In this document: positions 1 through 49,194 of the stretch, piece by piece
Layout: every line of letters begins with the position of its first letter
Position numbering within the stretch: the stretch's first letter is position 1
Virus record (IMG/VR): IMGVR_UViG_3300018411_000639
Coordinates: 48,617-112,616 of that record
Direction: 5' to 3' (one strand)
Source of the DNA: a virus
Length of the DNA: 64,000 nt
The notes under the pieces: generated by a model
What the model was told of the DNA's origin: nothing
Database searches by the model: none
The model's input: the letters and a program-made list of their open reading frames with translations, nothing else
Translations under genes and position numbers: made by a program

Positions 1-2060
1 TAGTTGCCTGCAATCTTCGGTGTCAGGTTGCTTGGCACTTGTGTCAGGGCTGCGTTCGTGCCGATGGTATTGATAGCTGTCTCCATAGTGATATTGGTGT
101 CTTTCAGGACATTGTAGAGTTCCTTGAATGTCGTCTTCTGTTGCGGAGATTTCAGTCTGCCTAGCACTTGATCCGCATTCAAGGTCTTGTCCAATTCACT
201 GACAGAGCCGTTCTTCACAAGGAACGCGATATCTTCCATTCGGGCCGGTCTGCCGAAGGTTTCTCTGAAGGCGATGTTTACGTCCGAGTAAGTGCCGTAC
301 ATCGTTTCAGCGTAACTGAATCCTCGCCCGTTCCCTAGTTGAAACATTCCCTCAAAGTTCCGTCGCGCGCTATCGGAAATCGTGCGGCCTACTTGTTGGT
401 CCACCATGGCAGAAGTCACCTCTCCGGGGTTCAACGGAATGCGGTTCACAGCTTGATTGGACTCCAAAGCGCTTCGCAGTTCCGCTTTCCGTCGGTACTT
501 GCTTCGACCCTGCAAACCAACTTGAGTGGCGTAAGAGCGCAAGCCTTTGAGTGGCATCTGGCTGAAGTCTGTCAGTTCCTCGGCTTCAACGACTGTATGG
601 ATGGAGAGGTCATTCTGGAACAAGGCTTGAATGTCGTCCGGGTTCGATCTGAAAATCGTACCTGTCACATTCTGATTTCCTTCGCCTGCTCCTCGGAACC
701 GAAGAGCGAACAACCCTTCTGCTCCCGGTTGGTTCTTCGCGACTCGACTTGCGATGCTCCCGTCAAGTTCTGCTGTTGGGATGAATTTCATCTCATCCAC
801 CTGATAGAACTGATTGCGGTTCAATGCGTAATCAAGGTGCGGCTGAATCTCTCCGTCAATCGCCATGAAGTCGTATCCGTCTTTGTCGATCTTAACCGCT
901 TTGTTGGCGAACACCACGCTCTCGCCCGCATTGTCTGGTGTGACGGTTCGGTTGTTTGGGTTGGAGCGAATAGCTTCCACACCTTCGAGGACGTCTTGGT
1001 AACTTTTCTGAGCAAGAGTCATGGTCGCTTTCGTATCGGATTCCGCAAGATGGGCGTCAATGTCGATACCGAAGGCCGAAGCCCACGAACCCAGACTACC
1101 CGGACTGCTTCCTGCACTAAAGCTTTCGATGCCTTGGTTGCTGGCGATACCGCTTAACGAAGACAACATTCTTCCTTGATTGGTTGCGCTCAGACCGGTT
1201 CTGGCATCATAGTGGTTCAGCGCCTTGACGGCAGGGATGCCTTGCTCCTGCAGCACGGCGTTCAGGAAAGGAATGTCATAGTTTGTGCCATTGTAGCTGA
1301 GAAGGGCTTTCCCCGGATTGTTGGTTTCGGTGATGGCGTTCCGTAAGGAAATAAGTTGCTGTCTTCCGACGTCTGTCTGGAGTCCTTGCTTGCGGCCTAC
1401 TTTAGCAAGATTGGACAAACCTGACCTTGCCCGACGAAGATCCGTTGGGTCAGGGTCGAGCAGTTTGCCCAGAGCGAAACGTTTGGAACGAGGATTCATC
1501 ACAAAGGCGTTGGGGTCAGAATAGACTGTCAGCCGTTTAATGGTGGACTGCTCAGCTGCACTCAACGTATCCCACCCATCTCCCTCTGCGCGGGCTATCA
1601 ACTCTAGGAAGCCTCTTCGTTGCCGTTCTTCTACACCAAAGGTAAGGACTTCGCTGATTGGCTTATTTGCCTGAATCATACCCGAAGCATTCTTCGTTAC
1701 CTGTTGCCGCACAAGAGCGACTTCCGTCATGGCCAGCAATCCTTTTTCGGACTCCGTTGCGTTTGGTCCGAAGTTCCCAAGGGTTTCCAAGTCGAAACCT
1801 GTAACGTCGCCTCCGTCCACCTCGAAGATGTTGCGGATGTTCTCTGCCTGCTTCTGGATTTCATTGAGGTCAAAACCTTTTGCTGCTTCAGGGTAAGTGG
1901 TGAACGCAAACGGCACACGGGATTGTCTGGCGAGAAGTTGGTTCAGCGTATCTCTTTGTTTCTGGTAAAGCTCCTGTGCGTCGGGATTATCCCACATTGT
2001 CCCAAGGTTGCTGTTGAAACTGCTTCTTGTTGTGTCTCGGTTGATGTCAGCTAAATACAT
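1..2060 (-). CDS. Giant tail-locus (tape-measure-like) protein, 5' part only, with an N-terminal DEDDh 3'-5' exonuclease domain
   Basis: Absent from the ORF track because it runs off the window. ATG at 2060 after an AAGGAGGG RBS. Manual translation: MYLADINRD...GFDLETLG (ExoI)...LSYNGTNYDIPFL (ExoII)...AHLAESD (ExoIII). Confidence 0.8.
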   Translation of the reverse strand, partial: MYLADINRDTTRSSFNSNLGTMWDNPDAQELYQKQRDTLNQLLARQSRVPFAFTTYPEAAKGFDLNEIQKQAENIRNIFEVDGGDVTGFDLETLGNFGPNATESEKGLLAMTEVALVRQQVTKNASGMIQANKPISEVLTFGVEERQRRGFLELIARAEGDGWDTLSAAEQSTIKRLTVYSDPNAFVMNPRSKRFALGKLLDPDPTDLRRARSGLSNLAKVGRKQGLQTDVGRQQLISLRNAITETNNPGKALLSYNGTNYDIPFLNAVLQEQGIPAVKALNHYDARTGLSATNQGRMLSSLSGIASNQGIESFSAGSSPGSLGSWASAFGIDIDAHLAESDTKATMTLAQKSYQDVLEGVEAIRSNPNNRTVTPDNAGESVVFANKAVKIDKDGYDFMAIDGEIQPHLDYALNRNQFYQVDEMKFIPTAELDGSIASRVAKNQPGAEGLFALRFRGAGEGNQNVTGTIFRSNPDDIQALFQNDLSIHTVVEAEELTDFSQMPLKGLRSYATQVGLQGRSKYRRKAELRSALESNQAVNRIPLNPGEVTSAMVDQQVGRTISDSARRNFEGMFQLGNGRGFSYAETMYGTYSDVNIAFRETFGRPARMEDIAFLVKNGSVSELDKTLNADQVLGRLKSPQQKTTFKELYNVLKDTNITMETAINTIGTNAALTQVPSNLTPKIAGN

Positions 2061-2079: not shown

Positions 2080-5000
2080 TTATACGAGTTTGGATGTGCG
2101 AATCTTCTCTTCGATTTCCTGTCGCTTATCCTTCTTCATTTTTACATCTACACCCACATCGCGGGTGCTGTAGCGGTAATCTACCTCTATATCTTCTAAG
2201 CCCATCTCGGTAAGGACATCCATAAGTTTGTTTCTCACCGTCAGGGCATTACTGCGGACATTCATTTTCGGAAGAGGGATTTCTCCTTCTGCATTGGCTT
2301 GGTCGATTTGATCCTGCCAAACATCGAACTCCCCGAAGTCCAGTCCCTGCTGCTTAATCATCTTGATTTTCACACTGTCGAGGTCTGTCTCCTCGTTCCA
2401 CCCTTCCCACTCTGCATCGGGCAGAACGTTCTCCTGGAAGTACGCATCCAGAGAAGGCTTATCTTCGACAGGCATTCCCCATGTACTCTCTAAAGCTCGT
2501 CGCAGGTACTTTGGAGCCAGACTCAGAATCTTGCCCTTCTCTTCTTCCGGAGCCTTCATAAAGTACTTCATGTACTGGCGGTCTGTCTTTGGTAACGCAG
2601 CTAGAATGTTGGCCAGAGGATCTCCACGATCATAACCGTACATCGTCTTCTCCGATTTGTTGTAGTAGTCGATGGCTTTGGTGGCATCTGAGGACAGGCG
2701 AGTGACGCTTCTGTCGCTTTGGATCTCGGTCAGCTCCTTATTGATTTGACCGACAATGAGTGACTGAGAGGCTTGCATGTCAACGTACTTTGGCGCACCT
2801 GTCTTGAACTCGAACTGATCTCTGTCTGCGTAGTTCATCTTGATGAATTTCTTGAAGTCCATCAGATCCCGTTTGCGGGCTTTCTTGTCCTGTCCGTTGA
2901 ACTCGGCACTCTTCATGAAGGCTTTCACGTCGAAGCCTTCTTCTTTGAGCGTCTTTTGTGCGTACTCCTCGTAGAGTCCGCGGTACTTCACGTATTTCAA
3001 GGTGTCGATGTATTCGTTCAGATTGCGTTCCTTCTGGCGTGTTTCTGGTATCCAGCGTTCGCCTGTCGTAGCTTCTTTTGTTCCGACAATAGCTTTCCCG
3101 ATGGCGGTGACAGAGAAACCTGTCAAGGCTCCCAATATCTTTCCGTAACGGGTAGATCCGAACGCTGACCCGAGCAACGTCCCCCAAATCAAACCACTTG
3201 GTCGGTTGATGCTTTCCCGAATGGCAGGAATCAGGAAGTCACGTACAGGATGCGTCCAGTTCTGGAAATCCTTGCCGTACACTTCTCGTTGCTCGTAACT
3301 CTCTGCCGCACTTCTTACCTGAAGGACTTTCGTATGAAACGGTGTGTTCAGATGGGACACAGCCTCCCATGCTTTCCCGAAGGCGATCTCCATCGGATTG
3401 TAGCGGGCATGGATGGATGCAGGAGTGAAGTCATCCTCTTTCTCCGTAGCAAGGCCGCGCTTCACCATGGTCTTGTTTACATTCAATCCGTTGCTGTAGA
3501 CCACGGCCCGAATACTGTTGACGGTATCTTTTGTGACCTGATTGGCTTCATCCATATCGTAACCGATTCTCACGGATCGACCGGGTTTCAGCAGCTGAGC
3601 CAGTTGCTTGCTCGCTTCCTCTCCCGTTCCATCTGCCATCGCTTCGCTTACGTGTACTCCGGCTAGTTTGATTGGATTGTCGGGCATCTCGTTCGCGATA
3701 AAGGTGTTGTTGCTCAGCATCTTTTTGACGGTCACAGTCTTCATTTCAAGGTTCGCCGTTTTGAATCGGTACGGATAAATCCGCATCGGCTCTTTGGCTT
3801 CGGTGACGCGATTGTCGATGGCAGACACTTCTTCTTGCTCTTCTGTTGTGATCTTCATCTTGGACAGCATAGCCTTTGTTTCTGCATATTCTCGCGAGTA
3901 CGGAGCCACATCGCCTAATATCCTCAGGCGGTCAATCGGATCGTAAAGTTCTCCTCTGCCAATCGACCCATCCGCTATACCGTTCCGGATGTAATCACGG
4001 GCTGTCCGAAGGTTATTCAAGGACTCCTGAAGCAAATCATCGCTATATTTGAATTTTGCTGTATACGTCTGATTTGGGTCGTCCCGGTTTATATATTGAA
4101 CATACCCGTTCCCCTTTTCTTGTCCTAGCGCCCACATATAATAATTCACTTGTTTGTGGTGGTCTGCTCGAGCCTCTCCTGTTTTGAGGACCTCTCTAAA
4201 GCCTTTGTCACTAATTGTCTTGATGTCGACTACACCTATCTTTGTTCTCGAAGATTCGTCATGAATGACGGCATCGTAGAAACCGAGGACGCCGTTCTCT
4301 TCGTCTTCGATCTTCCCTTCTGTATCAAGGGCGAGGCCGGACTTCAACCACATATCTTCTATTTTTTTGTGGTACTCCGTTCCTTCATCAACGATACTCT
4401 GCAAGCCTTCGTCCGTAATCGGGTCTTGGTTCAGCAAGTGCTTGATGATTTCCTCGGGTTCTTTTCCTAGAGTGGACGAACCGACACGAAGCGCCGTAGG
4501 GTCTTTGATGTTCCACGTTCGCTCGTAGCCTTCTCCAGGTAGTCGCATCTCTCCCTTGGCTACTTTCGTATAAGGGTCACCTGTTTGGAAGTTGGTAAAG
4601 TAATCCTCGCCCGGCATCCATTCTGGCATCGTGTTCTTGATTGGGTTGATGTACGCAACATCATTCCTTCTTTTCGGCAAGAAGCGTCGGAAGATTTCCG
4701 AGAACTCTCCTCCGAGCCCGCCAGCGTTCTGATCCCAGAACTGGCGATTGAACGACATAGACCAACCCGGGGTGTCTATAACTTCTTTTTCAGCTTGCGC
4801 TTCACCGGTAACGAATCCTTGGATTGCAAAGCCGTAAATACCAGCTATATCGCCCCACTGGTTCGCCTGTTCGCTCAAGCTATGCCCTACACTGTTTGGT
4901 GAAGCAACATCCCCTATTGTAGGTTCAGGCGTTACTGGTGGAGTCGTGTCCACTCGCGTGTCCGCACTTACAGCTTTGCTTAGCGCATACTTCCTTAGAT

Positions 5001-7812
5001 CGAAGTTGACTTCGGATAGGCCTAAGCTATTGTCTATGTTGATGACCTGCATTCCGCCGCTCGGCGTCTGGTAAACTTCGTAGGATTCATCCTTCGGTCG
5101 TGCGCCTGCAGTTGTGCCAATATCGACACCCAGTTCCTGTAGTTTTGGGGTCAGCAGATCGCCTGCGACAGCCGCATCGTCGGGCATCGCTCGTGATGGA
5201 GAACCTCCCGATGAAACTTGGGCTGCAGCTTCCTCTCCGCCTTCGGTAGAAGGAGCCGAACCCTGTTGCCCAGGAATCGCCGCTTGCAGACTCGGATCGA
5301 CAAGTGGTTCCGTGTAAGAGGTTGCTCCGCCCTTCTGCCAATACTCTTCATGCATCCGAAGACGCGGCTTGAGGATACGACCGATAGTAGCGCCGAAGGC
5401 CGGCCCGATGACAGGGATATTCTCGCCCTCTGGGGAAGTCATGAGGTATGGTCTGTCGTTGTAGTGCTTGCGGTCATAATAATACTTGTCGGTGACGAAG
5501 TGACGAATCGGAGCCAATGGCTGCGTGAGTGTCGGGAACCATGCGTTCTTGAAGTATTCTTCACGGCTTCCGAACTTACTGTCGGAGAATTCTGCGTCAC
5601 CCATGATTCTTCTGTAAAGGTTGGGTTGGAAGTATTGGATCTTTCCACCTGTCAAAGGCGTATTACCCATGTCCCAATAGCGTCCCTTTCTTACTTCCGT
5701 CATACCGCTCTCGTAATATTCTTCCCGTTCCTCTGTGGTGCTGGTCCAGTCTACGACGTTGATGCCGGGAATGTCTGCGATCTGTTCCGATCCTGGAGTC
5801 AGGTCGGCAATCTCTTTGGCGACTTTGGTGATGCCCAAGGAGTCCTTTACGCGATGCCAGCCGAGGTCAAAGTTCTTAACGTTCCTTGCGGTTCGCATCG
5901 TGATGTTGTCAGGGCTTCCGTTCTCGTCCTCGTCTCCGCCCTCGGTCAGGTAGTTCAGGTATTGATACCCCTGATAGGCTCCGTAGACAGGAAGGAATCG
6001 TTTCAGGACGAGGTTCGCTGCGATGTGTCCGACAGAGGCTTTGCTTTCGTTACTCATGCCCGGACCGAACATCCCGATAGCTTGATCCATTCGGTCAAAC
6101 ATGAAGTACGGCAAACTCGTTCTGGATGTGACGTTATCTCCGATGGTGTCCGGCCCGCCCTCTACCTTCTTGCGTCCGGCAACGAATTGGTGCGCCCAAT
6201 CTTTCAGGTCATACCCTTTGTCTTCTTTGAAGGCATCACGGAGGTTGTGGCTGTCACGGAAGGCGACAATCAGATCCTCTCCTTCTGGTGCGTTACCGAA
6301 AGCCCCCGATAGGTCGTGCTGAGATGTGACGGACTTGGACGCATGGAACATGTTCGTCTTGCCCAACTTGCGTCCCATCTCTTCGATGTAATGGTCCGGC
6401 TTGAAGATGTCAGCAAGACCTGTTTCTTGTTGATAGAGGTGCTCAACGGCCTTATCTTGAAAGCCGAGGTCAAGTGTTTCCATCATCTTGCCGTAAAGCC
6501 GTTGGTAGGTTTTACTTTTCTCATCGTGATGCTCGTAGTCCACCAAGTTCAGGTTTGCCATCTTCCGCATCTGATCGACTTCCCGAGGCAGCCCATACGG
6601 GCCCTGTTTCTCTTTGGGTATCTTCCAGACATGGTAGTTGCTCCCGACTTTCTCAAGACCACCCATATCATCGTTGATCCTGAACACATTCCCGTCCGAG
6701 AAGAGGAGAGGTTTGTCACCAAAGACATCCTTTATTTTGCTGTCTGTTCTGCCTGCGAGCTTGGTAACGTGAGGTTGGTACGTGTTGGCGTGCAGAAGTC
6801 CTGAAGATAGCTTGGTCCGGTTCATCTGATCGACGTCGAACAAGCGGAGCGGATTGATGCCTACAGCCGGAATCTTGAAGTCTGTTGCAAGGGAGTGGAC
6901 GAGATTATTCTTCGCCTTATCTGCCTTCCGGACGTCAATGAACTCCCCGAACTCGTCCACCATGATGTTTTTATCAAGCACGATGTTCTTGTACTTGTTA
7001 GATGAAAGCAGTGTTTCGGTTACGCCTTCCTCTGTGGTGTAGGCTGTGTTGATAAACTGATTGATCCTGTCAAGCGTCCCATCTTTGTCATCCAGACGGA
7101 TGCGGTCGGTACGGGATTGCACGCCCCCGTTCTTCGCTACATGGATAAGGTCTTCCAGTGTGGCAGAACGGTAGCCTGACCGTTTCATCTTCTTCTGCCC
7201 CTCTTCGGCTGCCTGCGTCATCTTTCTGCTGACATCCTGCATGAGTTGCGACTGGACAGGTTTCCTCGCCTGAGCGACCCCTGCTTTGTTCAGTCCATCT
7301 AAAGTTGACTTCATGCGGCCCATCTCGTACCCAAGGTCAGTGTCCGAGTAAGTATGGAGCGTAACGTCTTTTGCTGCCTCGGATAGCTTTTTGTTTTTGC
7401 TGATGACTTCCTTGTTCAGGTTCTTGATGTCGCGTCGTGTTTCTGACATCATCTCATTGAAGTTCCGGGGATTCGTCATGCGCTTCAGGTTGGCTTTCGT
7501 AGGCTCCATCCGCAACAGACTTGCCTTCGGAGCTTCGGTATTGTTCTTGCTCCAACGACGCATGGTCTGCATCGTAGTGTCCCCGTACCCCTGAAAGTCA
7601 TCTGCGTAGCGGAGCAGCTCTTTGATACCGCCTTTCAGCAAGCCCGATCGGTAAGCGGCGATACCCGCGATGCCGATAGCGGAAGCGATGAGTGTACGCT
7701 TTAGTGAGCTATTCTCTCGGGCCATACCTGTCGTATCGTCTTCCGTATAATCGCTATCTCTCGATCTGACTCTCTGTGTTCTTCGCTTTTCCCATTTGCG
7801 TTCGGATTGCAT
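2080..7812 (-). CDS. 1910-aa tape-measure-like/ejected virion protein with a PD-(D/E)XK (Cas4-like) nuclease domain and a degenerate SNase domain
   Basis: Directly follows the tail chaperones. Hydrophobic Gly-rich segments. Motifs GTEYH / GFYDAV / VDIKT / QVNYY; SNase-like VTVKKMLSNNTF..IKLAGVHVSE..NVNKTMVKRGLA. Confidence 0.75.
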   Translation of the reverse strand: MQSERKWEKRRTQRVRSRDSDYTEDDTTGMARENSSLKRTLIASAIGIAGIAAYRSGLLKGGIKELLRYADDFQGYGDTTMQTMRRWSKNNTEAPKASLLRMEPTKANLKRMTNPRNFNEMMSETRRDIKNLNKEVISKNKKLSEAAKDVTLHTYSDTDLGYEMGRMKSTLDGLNKAGVAQARKPVQSQLMQDVSRKMTQAAEEGQKKMKRSGYRSATLEDLIHVAKNGGVQSRTDRIRLDDKDGTLDRINQFINTAYTTEEGVTETLLSSNKYKNIVLDKNIMVDEFGEFIDVRKADKAKNNLVHSLATDFKIPAVGINPLRLFDVDQMNRTKLSSGLLHANTYQPHVTKLAGRTDSKIKDVFGDKPLLFSDGNVFRINDDMGGLEKVGSNYHVWKIPKEKQGPYGLPREVDQMRKMANLNLVDYEHHDEKSKTYQRLYGKMMETLDLGFQDKAVEHLYQQETGLADIFKPDHYIEEMGRKLGKTNMFHASKSVTSQHDLSGAFGNAPEGEDLIVAFRDSHNLRDAFKEDKGYDLKDWAHQFVAGRKKVEGGPDTIGDNVTSRTSLPYFMFDRMDQAIGMFGPGMSNESKASVGHIAANLVLKRFLPVYGAYQGYQYLNYLTEGGDEDENGSPDNITMRTARNVKNFDLGWHRVKDSLGITKVAKEIADLTPGSEQIADIPGINVVDWTSTTEEREEYYESGMTEVRKGRYWDMGNTPLTGGKIQYFQPNLYRRIMGDAEFSDSKFGSREEYFKNAWFPTLTQPLAPIRHFVTDKYYYDRKHYNDRPYLMTSPEGENIPVIGPAFGATIGRILKPRLRMHEEYWQKGGATSYTEPLVDPSLQAAIPGQQGSAPSTEGGEEAAAQVSSGGSPSRAMPDDAAVAGDLLTPKLQELGVDIGTTAGARPKDESYEVYQTPSGGMQVINIDNSLGLSEVNFDLRKYALSKAVSADTRVDTTPPVTPEPTIGDVASPNSVGHSLSEQANQWGDIAGIYGFAIQGFVTGEAQAEKEVIDTPGWSMSFNRQFWDQNAGGLGGEFSEIFRRFLPKRRNDVAYINPIKNTMPEWMPGEDYFTNFQTGDPYTKVAKGEMRLPGEGYERTWNIKDPTALRVGSSTLGKEPEEIIKHLLNQDPITDEGLQSIVDEGTEYHKKIEDMWLKSGLALDTEGKIEDEENGVLGFYDAVIHDESSRTKIGVVDIKTISDKGFREVLKTGEARADHHKQVNYYMWALGQEKGNGYVQYINRDDPNQTYTAKFKYSDDLLQESLNNLRTARDYIRNGIADGSIGRGELYDPIDRLRILGDVAPYSREYAETKAMLSKMKITTEEQEEVSAIDNRVTEAKEPMRIYPYRFKTANLEMKTVTVKKMLSNNTFIANEMPDNPIKLAGVHVSEAMADGTGEEASKQLAQLLKPGRSVRIGYDMDEANQVTKDTVNSIRAVVYSNGLNVNKTMVKRGLATEKEDDFTPASIHARYNPMEIAFGKAWEAVSHLNTPFHTKVLQVRSAAESYEQREVYGKDFQNWTHPVRDFLIPAIRESINRPSGLIWGTLLGSAFGSTRYGKILGALTGFSVTAIGKAIVGTKEATTGERWIPETRQKERNLNEYIDTLKYVKYRGLYEEYAQKTLKEEGFDVKAFMKSAEFNGQDKKARKRDLMDFKKFIKMNYADRDQFEFKTGAPKYVDMQASQSLIVGQINKELTEIQSDRSVTRLSSDATKAIDYYNKSEKTMYGYDRGDPLANILAALPKTDRQYMKYFMKAPEEEKGKILSLAPKYLRRALESTWGMPVEDKPSLDAYFQENVLPDAEWEGWNEETDLDSVKIKMIKQQGLDFGEFDVWQDQIDQANAEGEIPLPKMNVRSNALTVRNKLMDVLTEMGLEDIEVDYRYSTRDVGVDVKMKKDKRQEIEEKIRTSKLV

Positions 7813-8479
7813 TCATCACACCCTCATTCTGCCAATGGACGCCTCCGATGAGAGGGAAGTCCATGAAGTCTTTCTTCTGGTTAAATTCGTCTTTGAAGTA
7901 TATCATCGGATCCATTCCGTTAGCCCTCAGTTCATCCACAAACGCTTTGTTGTCAGAACCCGAGTTCTCGGCGTACTCCTCTACTTCTTGTTGGTTGGTG
8001 GTGAGTTGGATGTTATGACCTTTCAGGTTCAGGATTCTCTCTGCCCTTGCTACCGCCAGCATCAAGCGATCCCATGTCCAGTCTTCCATCTGCTCGTAGG
8101 AGTATTCCGGCATAGCCGCCTTGACGACAGCCATACACTCCTGGTCGAATTGCTTGGTCTTTCTCTTCCCTTTCTCGTAGGCATCCAGAACGGAACCCAA
8201 ACTGGTGAAGTTTGAAGCCTCGACGATCATCGGGCACGCATACGCCGACACCCCCGCAAGAGGGTAGTTCTCGAAGTCAATGTCTGCGGGCTCAAGGATG
8301 GCCGCTTGGCAGATGGCATCTTCCATGTCGTGGTCATCCTGCGTCAAGTTGGTGATGTCCCGATACTCTTTTCGCGTCAGGGTCCGAAAGACGAATTCTT
8401 TATTCTGAAAAAGGACATAAATCACTTTATGTCCTTCATGTGCTTCTTTGTGGTAAAACAAATCATAGATGGAGATCAT
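7754..8479 (-). CDS. Tail assembly chaperone-like protein (paralog 2)
   Basis: FVFRTLTRKEY..EDAICQ motif shared with the upstream gene; lies between tube and tape-measure genes. Confidence 0.6.
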   Translation of the reverse strand: MISIYDLFYHKEAHEGHKVIYVLFQNKEFVFRTLTRKEYRDITNLTQDDHDMEDAICQAAILEPADIDFENYPLAGVSAYACPMIVEASNFTSLGSVLDAYEKGKRKTKQFDQECMAVVKAAMPEYSYEQMEDWTWDRLMLAVARAERILNLKGHNIQLTTNQQEVEEYAENSGSDNKAFVDELRANGMDPMIYFKDEFNQKKDFMDFPLIGGVHWQNEGVMNAIRTQMGKAKNTESQIER

Positions 8480-8490
8480 TGCATTGCCCC

Positions 8491-9096
8491 CTATAATATC
8501 TGGATGGAGTAGTCTTTTGTGAATCCGCTATTCTCCATGACGATCTGTGCATAGGTTGACGGGATGCCCGCTTTTCCGATAGCCATCTTACGGAAGTCGT
8601 ACTTGCTTGGCCAAAGCGTACAGGTCTCACAAATGATTTCTTCTCTCTGCAGAGGGTCAAGGTTTGGGATAGCTGCGAGCTGTTTGTACTCGAAGCGGTT
8701 CAGAGTGCGGAAGACGAAGTACTGTCCCATGATTTCGATAGCCATAAGGTTGTAGTCTTCCCATTGGCGCTTCCACGTTTCGACTTGTGTGATGGTAGGT
8801 CCACCCACAAAGAGGGGTTCGTCATAAGCGTAGAGTTCAGGGTTGTCGCCGAGTTCTCCTTCTTCCGGCTCGCTTCTCAGCGTAGGTAGGTCTTCCCACT
8901 CTTCCGGTTCGTTCTGCAGATGAACACTTTCCTCGGTTTCTTCGCTTGTGTCGGAATTGACACCTTCAACTACTTCATTGTCATCTCGGAACGATGCGTA
9001 CAGGTCTTCGTTTGCTGCAGGTTCCTCACTGATTTGCTTGGATAGTTTTTCTTTGGCTTGCTTTGCTAATTGATCTAGGTTTCCTCCGCTGAACAT
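8491..9096 (-). CDS. Tail assembly chaperone-like protein (paralog 1)
   Basis: Acidic N-terminus; FVFRTLNRFEY..EEIICE motif; synteny. Confidence 0.6.
   Translation of the reverse strand: MFSGGNLDQLAKQAKEKLSKQISEEPAANEDLYASFRDDNEVVEGVNSDTSEETEESVHLQNEPEEWEDLPTLRSEPEEGELGDNPELYAYDEPLFVGGPTITQVETWKRQWEDYNLMAIEIMGQYFVFRTLNRFEYKQLAAIPNLDPLQREEIICETCTLWPSKYDFRKMAIGKAGIPSTYAQIVMENSGFTKDYSIQIL
8948..8963 (+). promoter_or_regulatory. 16-bp box (exact consensus), intragenic
   Basis: GTGTCGGAATTGACAC. Confidence 0.75.
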
Positions 9097-9115: not shown

Positions 9116-9631
9116 TTAGTCCGTGCTTTCCTCAATATCCTGTGCAATGAAATCGTAGGTCTTGAAAAGGGGGTTCCCTGACGCATCCACTTCCACACCT
9201 GAACTACGCAAGAACACGCGCTTTAAGGTTGTGTTCAAGGGATGGTTCGCTCCAAAGTCCACTCGGATCTCCAGATCGTTCCCTCTCAATGCTTCCGTGT
9301 TACCTTCTTTGAAGAAGGGTGTATGTTTGGGTGTCCCATCGTACTTAGGAACGCCGCCCGCTTCCTCTTCTTGTTCATATCCGGCCATAGCGTTCGTAAC
9401 CAGAGCACCGTACTCTTCTTCCAGTTTAGCCTTTGTGTTGGCGTCCAGTCTCCCTGTTGCGGTCAGACCTTTCTTGGTCTGGTAAGCTTTAACGGCTTCC
9501 TCGTAAGCAAGGGTGTACTCTTTCCCGATCGCATACCCGTTCAAAGCCCCGACAGCGTTCAACATAATGCCCACTTCCTGAACCTCATCTGAGATATAAG
9601 GACTTCCGGGGACATACTTTAGTTCTGACAT
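9116..9631 (-). CDS. Peptidoglycan-binding domain fused to the C-terminal half of a tail-tube-like fold
   Basis: PG-binding motif EAVKAYQTKKGLTATGRLDANT; C-terminal LKRVFLRSSGVEVD..TYDFIAQDI resembles the tube C-terminus. Confidence 0.6.
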   Translation of the reverse strand: MSELKYVPGSPYISDEVQEVGIMLNAVGALNGYAIGKEYTLAYEEAVKAYQTKKGLTATGRLDANTKAKLEEEYGALVTNAMAGYEQEEEAGGVPKYDGTPKHTPFFKEGNTEALRGNDLEIRVDFGANHPLNTTLKRVFLRSSGVEVDASGNPLFKTYDFIAQDIEESTD

Positions 9632-9685: not shown

Positions 9686-10549
9686 CTAGGCTTTGGGGAT
9701 ATATACGCCAGGTTCACCTGTTTTGGAGATGTACCCTTTTGTTCCGTTGCTGAGCTGGACATAGTACCAATCCGATACAGTGCGCAGAATCCTTACGTTA
9801 GTGGATTGCTCCAGTGTTGTGATGGTTGGGTAAGTCATACCCGGACCTGTCCGTATCGCCGTATCAGGAGCCACAAATAAGTTTGCGAACGACCCTGTGT
9901 TCAATCCTTGGATGACCGCAAGTGTTTCGGTATCGAGCACGCCGGATTGATTCAAGTTGTAGTCACTCTGGATTTGACGGACGACACCCTTTGTCTTCGT
10001 GTCGTAGAACCCGTTGATCTCGACAGCATAACCCAACTTCAGGAGTTGCGTCTGTGTTTTCCGTAATTCGTCGCTGAACTCTTTGTCCTCCAAAGACTGC
10101 AGGGAATTCAGTCTGCTTTCCTCTGCAGAGCTTGGACGGGATGAAGCTTTCCACGTAGAGCCGGACAAAGGCTGCAGGTGAGATAAGGCGCTCTCCACCC
10201 ATCCGGGGTAATTGTTCTTCTTCGCTTCCTCTGCAACTTCTTCATTCACTGAATCAACAATGGCTTCGATTTCTCTTGTGCTGTTCTCTTCGGGATTGTG
10301 GATCGGCACGCGCAACATCCCCACGACAATCCGATTCCCGATAGCGACATCATCAAAGGTACGAGAAGCGTAGCCAAAGATCGGTTTCAGTTGCTCCTGT
10401 ATCTGATAACTCAAGCCAGAGATATGCGTCAGCTTTTCCCCGTTGACGTAAATAGCGACGTCGGCGCCTGAAAAGTATTCCTCGGTAAAGATGTTATGCT
10501 CCCGCGTATCGCCAGAGTTGTACTTTAAGGTAAGGCGGTCATCTGCCAT
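9686..10549 (-). CDS. N-terminal half of a tail-tube-like fold + PG-binding + SH3b domain protein
   Basis: YFSGADV..LSYQIQEQLKPIFGYAS..GNRIVVG matches the tube N-terminus; VRQIQSDYNLNQSGVLD (PG-binding); IRTGPGMTY..WYYVQL..GYI (SH3b). Confidence 0.7.
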   Translation of the reverse strand: MADDRLTLKYNSGDTREHNIFTEEYFSGADVAIYVNGEKLTHISGLSYQIQEQLKPIFGYASRTFDDVAIGNRIVVGMLRVPIHNPEENSTREIEAIVDSVNEEVAEEAKKNNYPGWVESALSHLQPLSGSTWKASSRPSSAEESRLNSLQSLEDKEFSDELRKTQTQLLKLGYAVEINGFYDTKTKGVVRQIQSDYNLNQSGVLDTETLAVIQGLNTGSFANLFVAPDTAIRTGPGMTYPTITTLEQSTNVRILRTVSDWYYVQLSNGTKGYISKTGEPGVYIPKA

Positions 10550-12207
10550 CAGTTATTCCTCCTTGTTTCAATGGTCCACTTCCACGGCGTTTCTCCTTGA
10601 GGGTAAACAATCAGCTCCACTTGAGTCGGTTCGCTTCCTTGGTCGGGATTGTAGAGGAGCGCATCCTGTACGTCCTGCAGCGTCATCGAACGCGAGGAGT
10701 TGGCCGGAATGATGATAGTCTTCGTAAAGACCTCCTTCTTGCCGTTAGCGTACTTGGCGATGGCGGAAACCTTCACCACTTGCGGTACGTCTTGGGTTAC
10801 GCAGTCCATACCGAAAGTCTGACTGACCTCTTGCATGTTGTCCTGATAGATCAAAGTAGACTTACCTGGTTGCTTTAAGAAGAGGTACTGTGTGCCGTTC
10901 ACCTGCTCTTGTTTCTCTAGTCCGGCTTCGCTTTCCAATGTCTGCCACAACTCCCGATCGACAACGCCATCAGCAGTCAGGCCGCTTTGTCGCTGAGCCT
11001 CTTTTACTGTGAGGATGGTAGCTTCATCCATTAGACCATTCACGACCACACGCCCTGCGATATACTCACGGTCAGCTAGGCTGTTGAGTGCCTTCTGTAG
11101 GACGGAAACCAAGGCCCCTTTATCGCCTTCCCTGAGTTCAGGGTAAGTACTCTCTTCTCTCTGATTCCTGTAAGCATAGACATCATATTTGGACACGTAG
11201 CCCATCCTTGTTTCGTACCAGTCGCCTTCTTCTCCTGCTATAACCAGATCCTCTTTGTACGGATAGACAGTCAATGGTACAGACAGAACCGAAGGACTCT
11301 CGTAAACGAGTGCGCCGCTTTTATTTGTCACGACAGCTGACGGATTGATTGGCGCGCCCCCGGCCTCATAAGACTGTAGCAACAGATAGGTTTCATCGTC
11401 CACACCGCCACTGACGCGCAAGCCCTGGCTGGATTGGAAGGCACGAACCGCATCATAAGTACGGGTGTCGTAAATGCCAGTAGAGACCAAACTGTCGTGC
11501 CCTGCAGCCCGCAGAAGGTCTTGCACTCTTCTGACATCCTGGCCACTCAAGGTGTTGGCCGGGTCCAGTGAGAGGTTTCGCTTCAAGTCCGTGCGGTAAG
11601 AGCGAAGATTCTCTGCATTCAAATCTTTGTCATAACGGATATCGAAGTCCGTCAAGGTTCGGATTGTGGCAGACCCTTGCCCCTCTGTACTGTTTCCGAA
11701 CGCTTCTCCTGTGAAATTCGTCAGATCCCTTGCAACAAAGCTGAAGGTGTTCTCTGTGAAGATATCCTCTATGGAAAGAACTTGTCCTTCGTCTGTAATA
11801 TCCACACCGTAAATGAACATCTGGACAGCTGAACCGTACTCATTAGCGCAGATGATCATGAGATCAAACAGAGGAAGTTCATCCGCCTTCAGTTTCCCGA
11901 ACTTCTTGAGCCATGGTGCTTGGTCCAGTAACTCGTTTACCCAATGCTGATTGATAAGTGTAAAGACCATCGTGCCTGCATAGATTCGCGTCCCACGGGT
12001 AAACCCGCCAACGTTGACCTTTCCGATCAATGGAACAGGCTTCTTGTCTCGGAACATGGAATAGGAGAAGGTAGTCAGAGAACCCAGTACGATTGGCTTT
12101 GTTTGTGGCAGTAAGGCAAACACCAGAGCATCCGTACCAGAGAAGGTTCGGTAGTATTTCGGAATAGATGAATCGGTCATTCGGCTCGCTTCGTTGTATT
12201 CTGGCAA
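10549..12207 (-). CDS. Tail-tube paralog (baseplate/tube initiator-like) with two PG-binding domains and an SH3-like domain
   Basis: TFSGTD..GTRIYAGTMVF..LPLFD..NEYG..FSFVARD is a complete tube-like domain; AVRAFQSSQGLRVSGGVD. Likely TTG start at 12207 after AAAGGAG (ORF open to 12231). Confidence 0.7.
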   Translation of the reverse strand: MPEYNEASRMTDSSIPKYYRTFSGTDALVFALLPQTKPIVLGSLTTFSYSMFRDKKPVPLIGKVNVGGFTRGTRIYAGTMVFTLINQHWVNELLDQAPWLKKFGKLKADELPLFDLMIICANEYGSAVQMFIYGVDITDEGQVLSIEDIFTENTFSFVARDLTNFTGEAFGNSTEGQGSATIRTLTDFDIRYDKDLNAENLRSYRTDLKRNLSLDPANTLSGQDVRRVQDLLRAAGHDSLVSTGIYDTRTYDAVRAFQSSQGLRVSGGVDDETYLLLQSYEAGGAPINPSAVVTNKSGALVYESPSVLSVPLTVYPYKEDLVIAGEEGDWYETRMGYVSKYDVYAYRNQREESTYPELREGDKGALVSVLQKALNSLADREYIAGRVVVNGLMDEATILTVKEAQRQSGLTADGVVDRELWQTLESEAGLEKQEQVNGTQYLFLKQPGKSTLIYQDNMQEVSQTFGMDCVTQDVPQVVKVSAIAKYANGKKEVFTKTIIIPANSSRSMTLQDVQDALLYNPDQGSEPTQVELIVYPQGETPWKWTIETRRNN

Positions 12208-12235
12208 AGCATAACACTCCTTTCGTATCATATAG

Positions 12236-47994: not shown

Positions 47995-49194
47995 TTAGCG
48001 TTTCAACAATACGTGTACAGAACCAACCACGCCTTTGAAGTCCATGTATGTTGGAGTTCCGTAGTGGAAGGCTTTGAAGTCAGCTGTTACTTCTTTAGTA
48101 GCATCTAACTCTTCCAAGTTCACTGTGATGATACCTTTACCATAGTCGATTGTTACGCGCTCAGCTGCAACAACCACGCCTGCGATCTTAACAACGACGC
48201 CTTCTTGCAAGTTCTTCATTACGCCGCCTGCGTAATCTTTCGCTTGGAACGCCATCAAAGTGCCTGCTTGAACAGTGTCACCTACAGTACCCAGAGCCAT
48301 GTCTGTGTATTGCGTGTCGTTCTTGCCGTAGCCTAAGAAGTTACCTGTTCCGTCGTGTAAACCAGGAATACCAGTTGGGTTGTTGATCAACGAAGACTGG
48401 TACTGTTGGAACGTAGTGTTTCCTTCAGCATAAGCTGGGTCGTAAGGGTAGCCACCGTCTGAAGGCAGGTTTGAAGCGCCTGAACGGTTTAAGAATGCGT
48501 CGTCTTCTTTACGAGCTGACTCATCCCATAGCATCCACTGCATCCAGCCCCAAGGCTCAGAGTTCATGTCAGAAGCAAGTACCTGACCCACGATGTCGAT
48601 TGGGTTGTCAGTGTCTTTGATCCACTTAGTCAAACGACCAGATGGAGTCGCTTTAACGTAGTCGCCATCTTGTACGCCGGCACCGATAACAGAACCCCAA
48701 GGCATTTTCAGGTCAACTGTTAATGCTTGTTCTTCTGCCAGGACACCTTGTTTCGTGAAGCGAGCATCCGCTTCTACGCCTGGGATGTACGGCAATGTGA
48801 TGTAGTCTTGTGTGATGATAGAAGGTTGATTTCCACCAAAACGGTCTGACTGCAAGTAGTCTTTTGTAATGTTGTAAGGAACAACCCCGATTGGGTTCTT
48901 CGTTAAGGACATACCCGGTAATGTTAAAGTTGAACGGAACTTCTTAGTGACAAAGCTCTTAGAAGCTTTACCGTTGGCAACCACACGGCCTTTAGGGATA
49001 ACAACGTCTGTCATACCTGCGCCACCGTATTCGTAGTTCATCAGAACGCCGTTACGGAAAACACCTGACATATCTTGGTCTTGGAAGCTAGGGTCCAGTA
49101 ACCATTCTTCAGCTGGGGAAGCATGTCCACTCTTCACTAGGTGGGTATTGCTTCTTGAGCCTTCTACTCTATTAAAGCCTTCGTATAATGCCAT
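47995..49194 (-). CDS. Abundant head protein (decoration/cement-like)
   Basis: Between protease and capsid genes; VVIPKGRVV..PIGVVPY; GDYVK...GRL. Confidence 0.6.
   Translation of the reverse strand: MALYEGFNRVEGSRSNTHLVKSGHASPAEEWLLDPSFQDQDMSGVFRNGVLMNYEYGGAGMTDVVIPKGRVVANGKASKSFVTKKFRSTLTLPGMSLTKNPIGVVPYNITKDYLQSDRFGGNQPSIITQDYITLPYIPGVEADARFTKQGVLAEEQALTVDLKMPWGSVIGAGVQDGDYVKATPSGRLTKWIKDTDNPIDIVGQVLASDMNSEPWGWMQWMLWDESARKEDDAFLNRSGASNLPSDGGYPYDPAYAEGNTTFQQYQSSLINNPTGIPGLHDGTGNFLGYGKNDTQYTDMALGTVGDTVQAGTLMAFQAKDYAGGVMKNLQEGVVVKIAGVVVAAERVTIDYGKGIITVNLEELDATKEVTADFKAFHYGTPTYMDFKGVVGSVHVLLKR

Follow-up and report, generated by a model that had tools for sequence, protein, structure and literature searches.

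A protein in the tape-measure slot of a 0305phi8-36-like jumbo phage carries an optional, apparently working PD-(D/E)XK nuclease cassette

A 64,000-nucleotide (nt) stretch of the IMG/VR virus record IMGVR_UViG_3300018411_000639 (positions 48,617 to 112,616; hereafter the window) was analysed around a single minus-strand gene at 2080–7812. The window forms the final 64 kb of a 112.6-kb viral contig whose completeness was estimated at about half. The gene encodes a protein of 1910 amino acids (aa) (P0001; open reading frame (ORF) call and translation) and comes immediately after the pair of tail chaperone genes. The protein consists of a conserved backbone with hydrophobic Gly-rich segments that holds two inserted accessory modules, a nuclease and an OB fold derived from staphylococcal nuclease (SNase). 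The new element is a gene in the tape-measure slot whose nuclease is a clean, optional cassette of about 190 aa and not a member of the Cas4 family. We estimate at about 60% the probability that this is a virion protein of an uncultured 0305phi8-36-like jumbo myophage which delivers an active DNA-end nuclease and a DNA-binding domain at genome entry. Such a phage would probably bring a DNA-cutting enzyme into the cell along with its genome. The folds, residue conservation, cassette nature and gene position from which this reading starts were observed directly.

The nuclease cassette spans aa 1105–1284 (3961–4500, minus strand), as defined by profiles, an AlphaFold2 fold, conservation, and boundaries taken from homologues without the cassette. 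An earlier sequence-only reading of this DNA, made by a model without database searches, had described an intact Cas4-like nuclease without Fe-S cysteines next to a dead SNase domain. All the motifs it quoted lie where it had placed them: SSTLGKEP (aa 1112–1119), GTEYH (aa 1144–1148), GFYD (aa 1177–1180), VDIK (aa 1195–1198) and QVNYY (aa 1221–1225) in the nuclease, SNNT (aa 1367–1370; 3703–3714) and KLAGVH (aa 1382–1387; 3652–3669) in the SNase-like domain. The catalytic codons are those of H1148 (4369–4371), D1180 (4273–4275), D1196 (4225–4227), K1198 (4219–4221), Q1221 (4150–4152) and Y1225 (4138–4140). Profile searches and structure prediction recovered the PD-(D/E)XK fold as well as the SNase fold.

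The nuclease region matched PHROG 1706 (CRISPR/Cas-associated; E 4.3e-14) and PHROG 1990 (Cas4-domain exonuclease; E 1.3e-6). The match to TIGR00372 (cas4) had an E-value of 1.3e-5 but only 25.1 bits against a family cut-off of 65. PHROG 434 (RecE-like) matched weakly and below threshold (E 0.0036), and TIGR03033 only at E 0.16, in the relative L019. A Pfam scan of the 1910-aa protein gave no Cas4 or PDDEXK match at E ≤1, and neither Pfam nor NCBIfam gave a match to the lambda exonuclease/YqaJ families. A single-sequence PDB search with aa 1080–1504 returned nothing meaningful. The AlphaFold2 model of the same segment, built from an alignment of 26 sequences, had a mean predicted local distance difference test score (pLDDT) of 81.6. 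The best structural match of aa 1105–1284 in this model was LHK-Exo (3syy; Z 13.9, 161 aligned residues, root mean square deviation 3.5), followed by Cas4 SSO0001 (4ic1; Z 13.8), the N-terminal nuclease of DinG (13.0), MGME1 (12.4) and lambda exonuclease (12.2). RecE scored lower (Z 10.2), and further Cas4, Dna2, Exo5 and AdnAB nuclease domains matched too. In the model, H1148 lies in the first long helix, D1180 ends strand 2, D1196-x-K1198 is in strand 3, and Q1221-xxx-Y1225 is in the next helix. In a 13-sequence cassette profile, D, DxK and QxxxY fall on their counterparts in SSO0001 (GRAD, EIK and QxxxY), and D and DxK fall on the LLD and IDWK motifs of MGME1; the motif II Asp, the motif III DxK and QxxxY are thus placed by alignment, and the His by its helix in the model.

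G1144, H1148, D1180, D1196, K1198, Q1221 and Y1225 were invariant in the 120 closest homologues (44–56% identity), the Glu of GTEYH not being conserved among them, and the catalytic residues were present in about 90–97% of 235 cassette-bearing proteins. Not a single cysteine occurs in the whole 1910-aa protein. By predicted fold and motifs, aa 1105–1284 are a PD-(D/E)XK nuclease of the RecB/Cas4/lambda-exo branch that has all its metal-binding and catalytic residues (H, D, DxK, QxxxY), lacks an Fe-S cluster and is apparently working. The likeness to Cas4 (SSO0001) and to RecB-family enzymes (MGME1, AddB/AdnAB nuclease domains) extends to the fold and to motifs II, III and QxxxY, which align residue for residue. 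Cas4 itself differs by its Fe-S cysteines and CRISPR context, whereas the cassette is free of cysteine and embedded in a tail protein; its surroundings are a tail operon between chaperones and hub, with no cas1/cas2 or CRISPR neighbourhood. The description as Cas4-like therefore stands for fold and motifs, but the cassette is not Cas4 proper, given the bit score far below the cut-off, the missing cysteines and the absence of CRISPR context. The lambda exonuclease/LHK-Exo/RecE/YqaJ group, which supplied the best structural match, likewise has no Fe-S cluster; its members are stand-alone early genes, in contrast to the embedded cassette, and no gene for an annealing protein was noticed next to it. 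The N-terminal G-S-S-x-I-G stretch of the cassette presumably recalls the N-terminus of YqaJ.

The SNase-like domain (aa 1354–1475; 3388–3753, minus strand) is an OB fold of the SNase/Tudor-SN type whose active site is degenerate, as seen from profile, fold match and residue comparison. The Pfam SNase profile (PF00565) scored 18.3 bits (E 0.003), under the gathering score of 21, and a family profile matched staphylococcal nuclease structures at E 4.6e-4. The modelled fold matched staphylococcal nuclease (1sta; Z 10.4) and Tudor-SN (Z 10.2). The Ca2+ ligands D21, D40 and T41 and the catalytic R35, E43 and R87 of staphylococcal nuclease correspond to N, H, V, K, E and N, respectively, in the 1910-aa protein. 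In the family as a whole, 173 of 233 cassette-bearing proteins have N for D21, R35 is replaced by K, D40 by N, R or H, and the positions of E43 and R87 are variable. The idea that an active SNase is kept in proteins without the PD-(D/E)XK cassette was rejected, the site being degenerate in both groups alike. Judged by these residues, the SNase fold is catalytically dead throughout the family, in agreement with the earlier description of a dead domain, and similar family-wide replacements are found in non-catalytic Tudor-SN-like domains. The domain was nevertheless kept in 265 of 267 proteins examined, and nucleic-acid binding is probably the only activity left to this OB fold. Some JGI records name homologues 'endonuclease YncB (thermonuclease family)'; such labels call attention to the dead domain and overlook the apparently live one.

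Clustering of the family left at least 246 proteins at the 90% level and 683 representatives at the 50% level (E ≤0.001), and many members lie on contigs of about 210 kb. Among 145 representatives, 32 had no detectable nuclease. In cassette-less proteins the junction is clean: the backbone aligns to about aa 1097 (RLPGEGYER) and again from about aa 1275–1290 (the DVAPYS linker), and in pairwise alignments only about 12 residues bridge the two sides. Divergence of the cassette is correlated with that of its flanks (Pearson 0.37; the highest of 300 permutations was 0.15), which indicates mainly vertical inheritance with repeated loss. Close stand-alone relatives of the cassette in a collection of 5.8 billion proteins were limited to two fragments on tiny contigs, and a donor family was not found. 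Compensation of cassette loss by a stand-alone copy was considered and rejected: only one of five nearly complete cassette-less genomes gave a match, a weak one of 288 aa (E 2e-4). This match lies in the 251-kb nearly complete genome of L018 (L047/L048; G001:C1:50416-50976), and the other four such genomes had none.

The 1910-aa protein is a homologue of ORF145/gp145 (ABS83703.1) of the Bacillus thuringiensis jumbo phage 0305phi8-36 (34% identity and 87% of the length in tblastn; 32% over aa 12–1904 in blastp); megablast of the 2080–7812 gene against phage records gave no match. In the GenBank record of 0305phi8-36, ORF145 is annotated as 'virion structural protein, identified by mass spectrometry', and the gene order is gp143/gp144 ('hypothetical tail chaperonins'), gp145 and gp146 ('hypothetical tape measure protein'). 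The two proteins are full-length homologues and share gene position, nuclease cassette and SNase-like domain. The cassette of gp145 has H, D, DxK and QxxxY and differs by an insert of about 67 aa between motifs II and III, and its record goes no further than 'virion structural protein'. The tape-measure role in 0305phi8-36 was given to orf146, mainly on tail length; the chaperones sit one gene away from orf146, and gp145 is nowhere discussed in that comparative analysis (PMC2147016).

All large genes around the 1910-aa ORF are on the minus strand and together form a myophage tail module, which includes two sheath-type proteins, a tube protein and tube paralogues, two chaperone-like genes, the 1910-aa ORF, a 3024-aa ORF and a hub of 1756 aa with NlpC/P60 and glucosaminidase (cell-wall hydrolase) domains. 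The chaperone pair (7754–9096, minus strand) consists of a gp144-like gene (7754–8479; PHROG 29368) and a gp143-like gene (8491–9096; PHROG 29362). In its N-terminal portion the gp144-like protein also matches PHROG 29362, and N-terminal sharing of this kind was described for gp143/gp144 (PMC2147016). The gp145-like gene comes after sheath, tube and chaperone pair here and in about 40 related loci (gene contexts of relatives were taken from IMG/VR loci). The order is kept even in clades without a giant of about 2900 aa, the next protein there having about 1100–2000 aa. Membrane-like segments, which the sequence-only reading had noticed, were found again as hydrophobic Gly-rich stretches on either side of the nuclease and SNase-like modules. 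One is an N-terminal Gly/Ala-rich segment (aa 37–60; 7633–7704, minus strand; Kyte-Doolittle 19-residue mean >1.5 from aa 41), and the other consists of two Gly-zipper helices (aa 1541–1580; 3073–3192, minus strand) with a hydrophobicity peak from aa 1559 and a G-rich pattern kept in the consensus.

In the preferred reading, the protein would be carried in the tail and expelled at infection in the manner of a tape measure protein, which would place the nuclease and the DNA-binding domain at the genome entry site before any phage gene is expressed. The link to the virion comes from gp145 of 0305phi8-36, a virion protein by mass spectrometry according to its record, which bears the same cassette. 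The neighbours are consistent with a delivered protein, namely the 3024-aa giant with DEDDh and DxDGD motifs and the hub with cell-wall hydrolases. As the target we tentatively prefer the end of the phage genome that enters first. Were it resected to a limited extent on the 5' side, a 3' tail would remain, which would be protected as a poor substrate for AddAB/RecBCD-type enzymes and would allow terminal repeats to anneal or recombine. The cassette being often lost or inactivated in relatives, end processing would be an accessory, host-dependent advantage and not a core step. Circularisation, which the sequence-only reading had put forward as a possible role, is as an indispensable function argued against by the many deleted or inactivated cassettes, and frequent loss and decay fit conflict-type modules better than obligatory circularisation (PMC5512222). 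A more specific arrangement, to which we give little credence, is that the protein leaves the tail as a trimer. Three lambda-exo-like domains would then form a ring where the injection channel opens into the cytoplasm, the dead SNase OB folds would guide the DNA, and the entering genome would be threaded through and resected at its leading end. Should this be true, it would mean injection-coupled DNA processing by a structural protein, switched between lineages by cassette loss and decay.

Several points weigh against the preferred reading. Among 137 representatives, 86 had an intact cassette, 21 a decayed one (fold kept, at least two catalytic residues replaced) and 30 none, and at least 22 changes of state were needed on the tree of the flanks; these counts are approximate, as they come from a FastTree of the flanking sequence and an automatic alignment. 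In the IMG/VR loci L013 and L016, for example, the His is lost, DxK has become NxR and QxxxY has become ExxxD. Such frequent loss and decay mean that the function is accessory and lineage-dependent, and that it is dispensable in many lineages. No match to tape-measure families was obtained for the 1910-aa protein in Pfam, PHROGs or NCBIfam. Its earlier description as tape-measure-like thus holds for the slot after the chaperone pair, occupied in all related loci, but not for the profile, and the annotated tape measure protein is gp146, encoded by the next gene. The two modelled parts (aa 1080–1504 and aa 560–1100) are globular or mixed, with no long helical ruler. Tape-measure-slot protein is a fair name for the gp145-like proteins, despite the absent profile match. 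The polarity of the exonuclease is not readable from its sequence, and its ejection, activity and substrate are matters that we infer. Folded 20-kDa domains in the tail lumen are unproven, and the virion might hold the protein at another place. The tail of 0305phi8-36 is reportedly 486 nm long; with an assumed lumen of 4 nm, a rough calculation gives several thousand cubic nanometres, room for gp145 and gp146 in a few copies each, which proves nothing. The phage's own DNA would, moreover, be at risk from a nuclease left unrestrained where it enters.

The delivered domain could instead attack the DNA of the host, a plasmid, a prophage or a competing phage, as an immediate weapon of takeover or exclusion comparable to polyvalent conflict proteins. 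We put such an attack almost on a par in likelihood with action on the genome end, and regard it as rather unlikely. That the cassette comes, goes and decays in a patchy way is typical of conflict modules, the concept of polyvalent proteins (PMC5512222) covers such a use, and the exonuclease and RNA-polymerase-like motifs of the neighbouring giant suggest an autonomous early programme. A distant backbone relative bears a different nuclease fold, DUF559/MTES_1575, which points in the same direction. These observations have to be set against the need of RecB/lambda-exo-type enzymes for DNA ends, which a circular chromosome does not offer, the few copies that a virion would deliver, and the lack of an evident mechanism of self-protection, no immunity gene having been noticed adjoining. 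It is improbable, in turn, that the nuclease fold serves without catalysis, as a DNA- or protein-binding part or a structural plug holding, for example, the genome end in the tail or channel, its residues binding metal or DNA without cutting. The retention of a dead SNase domain and the 21 representatives that keep the nuclease fold despite at least two catalytic replacements (e.g. L013 and L016) would agree with such a use; all six catalytic and metal-binding residues, including the Lys, are however invariant in the 120 nearest homologues, as expected for catalysis and not for mere binding.

Two further explanations appear highly improbable, and to the same degree. The cassette could be a selfish, in-frame mobile element of the homing-nuclease type that spreads between tail genes without benefit to the phage. 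Its clean boundaries and patchy distribution would suit such an element, and the same gene harbours inteins at two sites in relatives. Cassette divergence, however, follows that of the flanks, no close relatives were found standing alone or placed elsewhere, the RecB/lambda-exo branch is not a known type of homing endonuclease, no splicing motifs flank the cassette, and repeated loss is the most parsimonious pattern. Alternatively, the protein could act within the infected cell, in tail assembly or DNA metabolism, its presence in the virion being incidental. This would accord with an ejection that is deduced only indirectly and with a backbone without a relative of solved fold, but not with the conserved place between tail chaperones and hub, the virion annotation of the 0305phi8-36 homologue, or the resemblance of the hydrophobic segments to those of tape measure proteins.

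Known systems offer partial parallels to a nuclease delivered on a tail protein. Embedded tape-measure domains known so far are muralytic or fusogenic. With T5 pb2 and Sle1-type effectors the protein shares a gene position after the tail chaperones, membrane-active segments and a modular domain on an ejected lumen protein, ejection being presumed here. Sle1-type effectors of contractile injection systems are tape-measure-related scaffolds with swappable functional domains (bioRxiv 10.1101/2025.11.06.686954); the embedded domain of Sle1 differs in that it acts on ribosome-associated fractions. Polyvalent proteins, which phages and conjugative elements encode, are injected multidomain proteins (Iyer et al. 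2017, PMC5512222). The 1910-aa protein resembles them as a giant multidomain protein among virion genes with swappable enzymatic modules and presumed injection with DNA. It combines several unrelated domains (nuclease, SNase-derived OB fold and a backbone of unknown fold), and the optional ones vary among relatives. Phage examples of polyvalent proteins are mostly packaged in the head, whereas the present gene lies in a tail module, and the main text of PMC5512222 does not mention tape measure proteins or RecB, Cas4 or SNase domains. One precedent is a nuclease that works on phage DNA at the tape-measure conduit (PMC13190303). The BtI1 prophage, of the same phage lineage, has an SNase domain in its hub protein (PMC2147016), likewise a fusion of an SNase-type domain to a tail-tip or tail-lumen protein, although the hub is another protein. 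Full-text literature searches, whose coverage was incomplete, found no description of a nuclease within a tape-measure-slot protein or of the domains of gp145.

Proteins that enter ahead of or with the DNA shape the first seconds of infection; they include polymerases, anti-restriction proteins, end-protecting proteins and wall hydrolases. If the preferred reading is true, DNA cutting or end processing would join this list of delivered functions across a large group of jumbo phages whose 50%-identity clusters number in the hundreds. With the cassette intact in some members, decayed in others and deleted in still others, the shared backbone offers a natural comparative series on the purpose of the nuclease, and 0305phi8-36 is a cultured phage with the same cassette.

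The remainder of the protein is made up of the following parts, all on the minus strand. Backbone core A (aa 560–830; 5323–6135) is conserved in alignments and common to distant backbone proteins. It is followed by a variable linker of low complexity (aa 831–960; 4933–5322; pLDDT <50), unaligned in relatives, and by the likewise conserved core B (aa 961–1104; 4501–4932), which ends with the RLPGEGYER motif. A helical linker with an invariant DVAPYS (aa 1285–1353; 3754–3960) is part of the universal backbone, and every backbone relative could be aligned with the conserved C-terminal backbone domain (aa 1581–1910; 2083–3072). An AlphaFold2 model of aa 560–1100 (pLDDT 72) had no solved fold relative (best Z 4.4). 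A search of the ESM Atlas with aa 560–1095 gave no usable match, and a BFVD search with the core (aa 560–1100) yielded homologues only, among them one with the label 'large polyvalent protein associated domain'.

LAGLIDADG-type inteins occur in several homologues (e.g. P0010, P0011, P0016, P0019 and P0101) and are absent from the 1910-aa protein. The corresponding sites, both within the most conserved backbone motifs, are N717/T718 (GN|TP..TGGK; window 5661/5662) in core A and Y1081/T1082 (GDPY|TK; window 4569/4570), about 25 aa ahead of the nuclease cassette. Distant IMG/VR phages have backbone proteins of about 1400 to 2300 aa, some split into shorter ORFs, which also directly follow tube and chaperone homologues. 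Both cores (A and B), the DVAPYS linker, the C-terminal domain and the region of the Gly zippers are common to them. In some, nuclease and SNase-like domain are both missing, L018 has the SNase-like domain only, and L019 the nuclease only. The 1415-aa protein of L020 (L020:7463-11710; IMG/VR 3300036893_000002) has no RecB-type cassette and keeps the SNase-like domain only partly. At aa 579–672 of the stop-to-stop frame, within the core region, it bears a Vsr-like REase_MTES_1575/DUF559 domain (Pfam E 1e-18), which would take the place of the variable linker. This domain is perhaps not part of an intein, as no splicing domain was matched and there is little extra length.

The downstream giant of 3024 aa holds the gp146 position and runs off the start of the window. 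Its first 686 aa are encoded at 3–2060 (minus strand), and together with the part beyond the window the gene spans G000:C1:41602-50676 (minus strand). The DEDDh motifs pointed out by the sequence-only reading lie at aa 88–342 (window 1035–1799) and are conserved in 9 of 11 related loci. An RNA-polymerase-like NADVDGD motif is found at aa 2097, and its DxDGD core recurs in most related giants; a single-sequence PDB search with the surrounding region (aa 1200–2300), made for the RNA-polymerase idea, gave nothing. The resemblance to gp146 is confined to the last 130 aa or so, and both the DEDDh and the DxDGD motifs are missing from gp146 of 0305phi8-36 and from L011.

As annotated, the 1910-aa ORF begins 59 nt before the second chaperone gene ends (7754–7812), and the two genes share a comparable 40–76 nt in 0305phi8-36 and in numerous related loci (L005-L007, L010, L013, L015). 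With a start at the second Met, aa 30, the overlap would be gone. The tail-tube paralogues (10549–12231 and 9686–10549) and a 171-aa protein (9116–9631) contain repeats that match cell-wall-binding regions of endolysins in PHROGs, which suggests wall-binding decorations on tail proteins.

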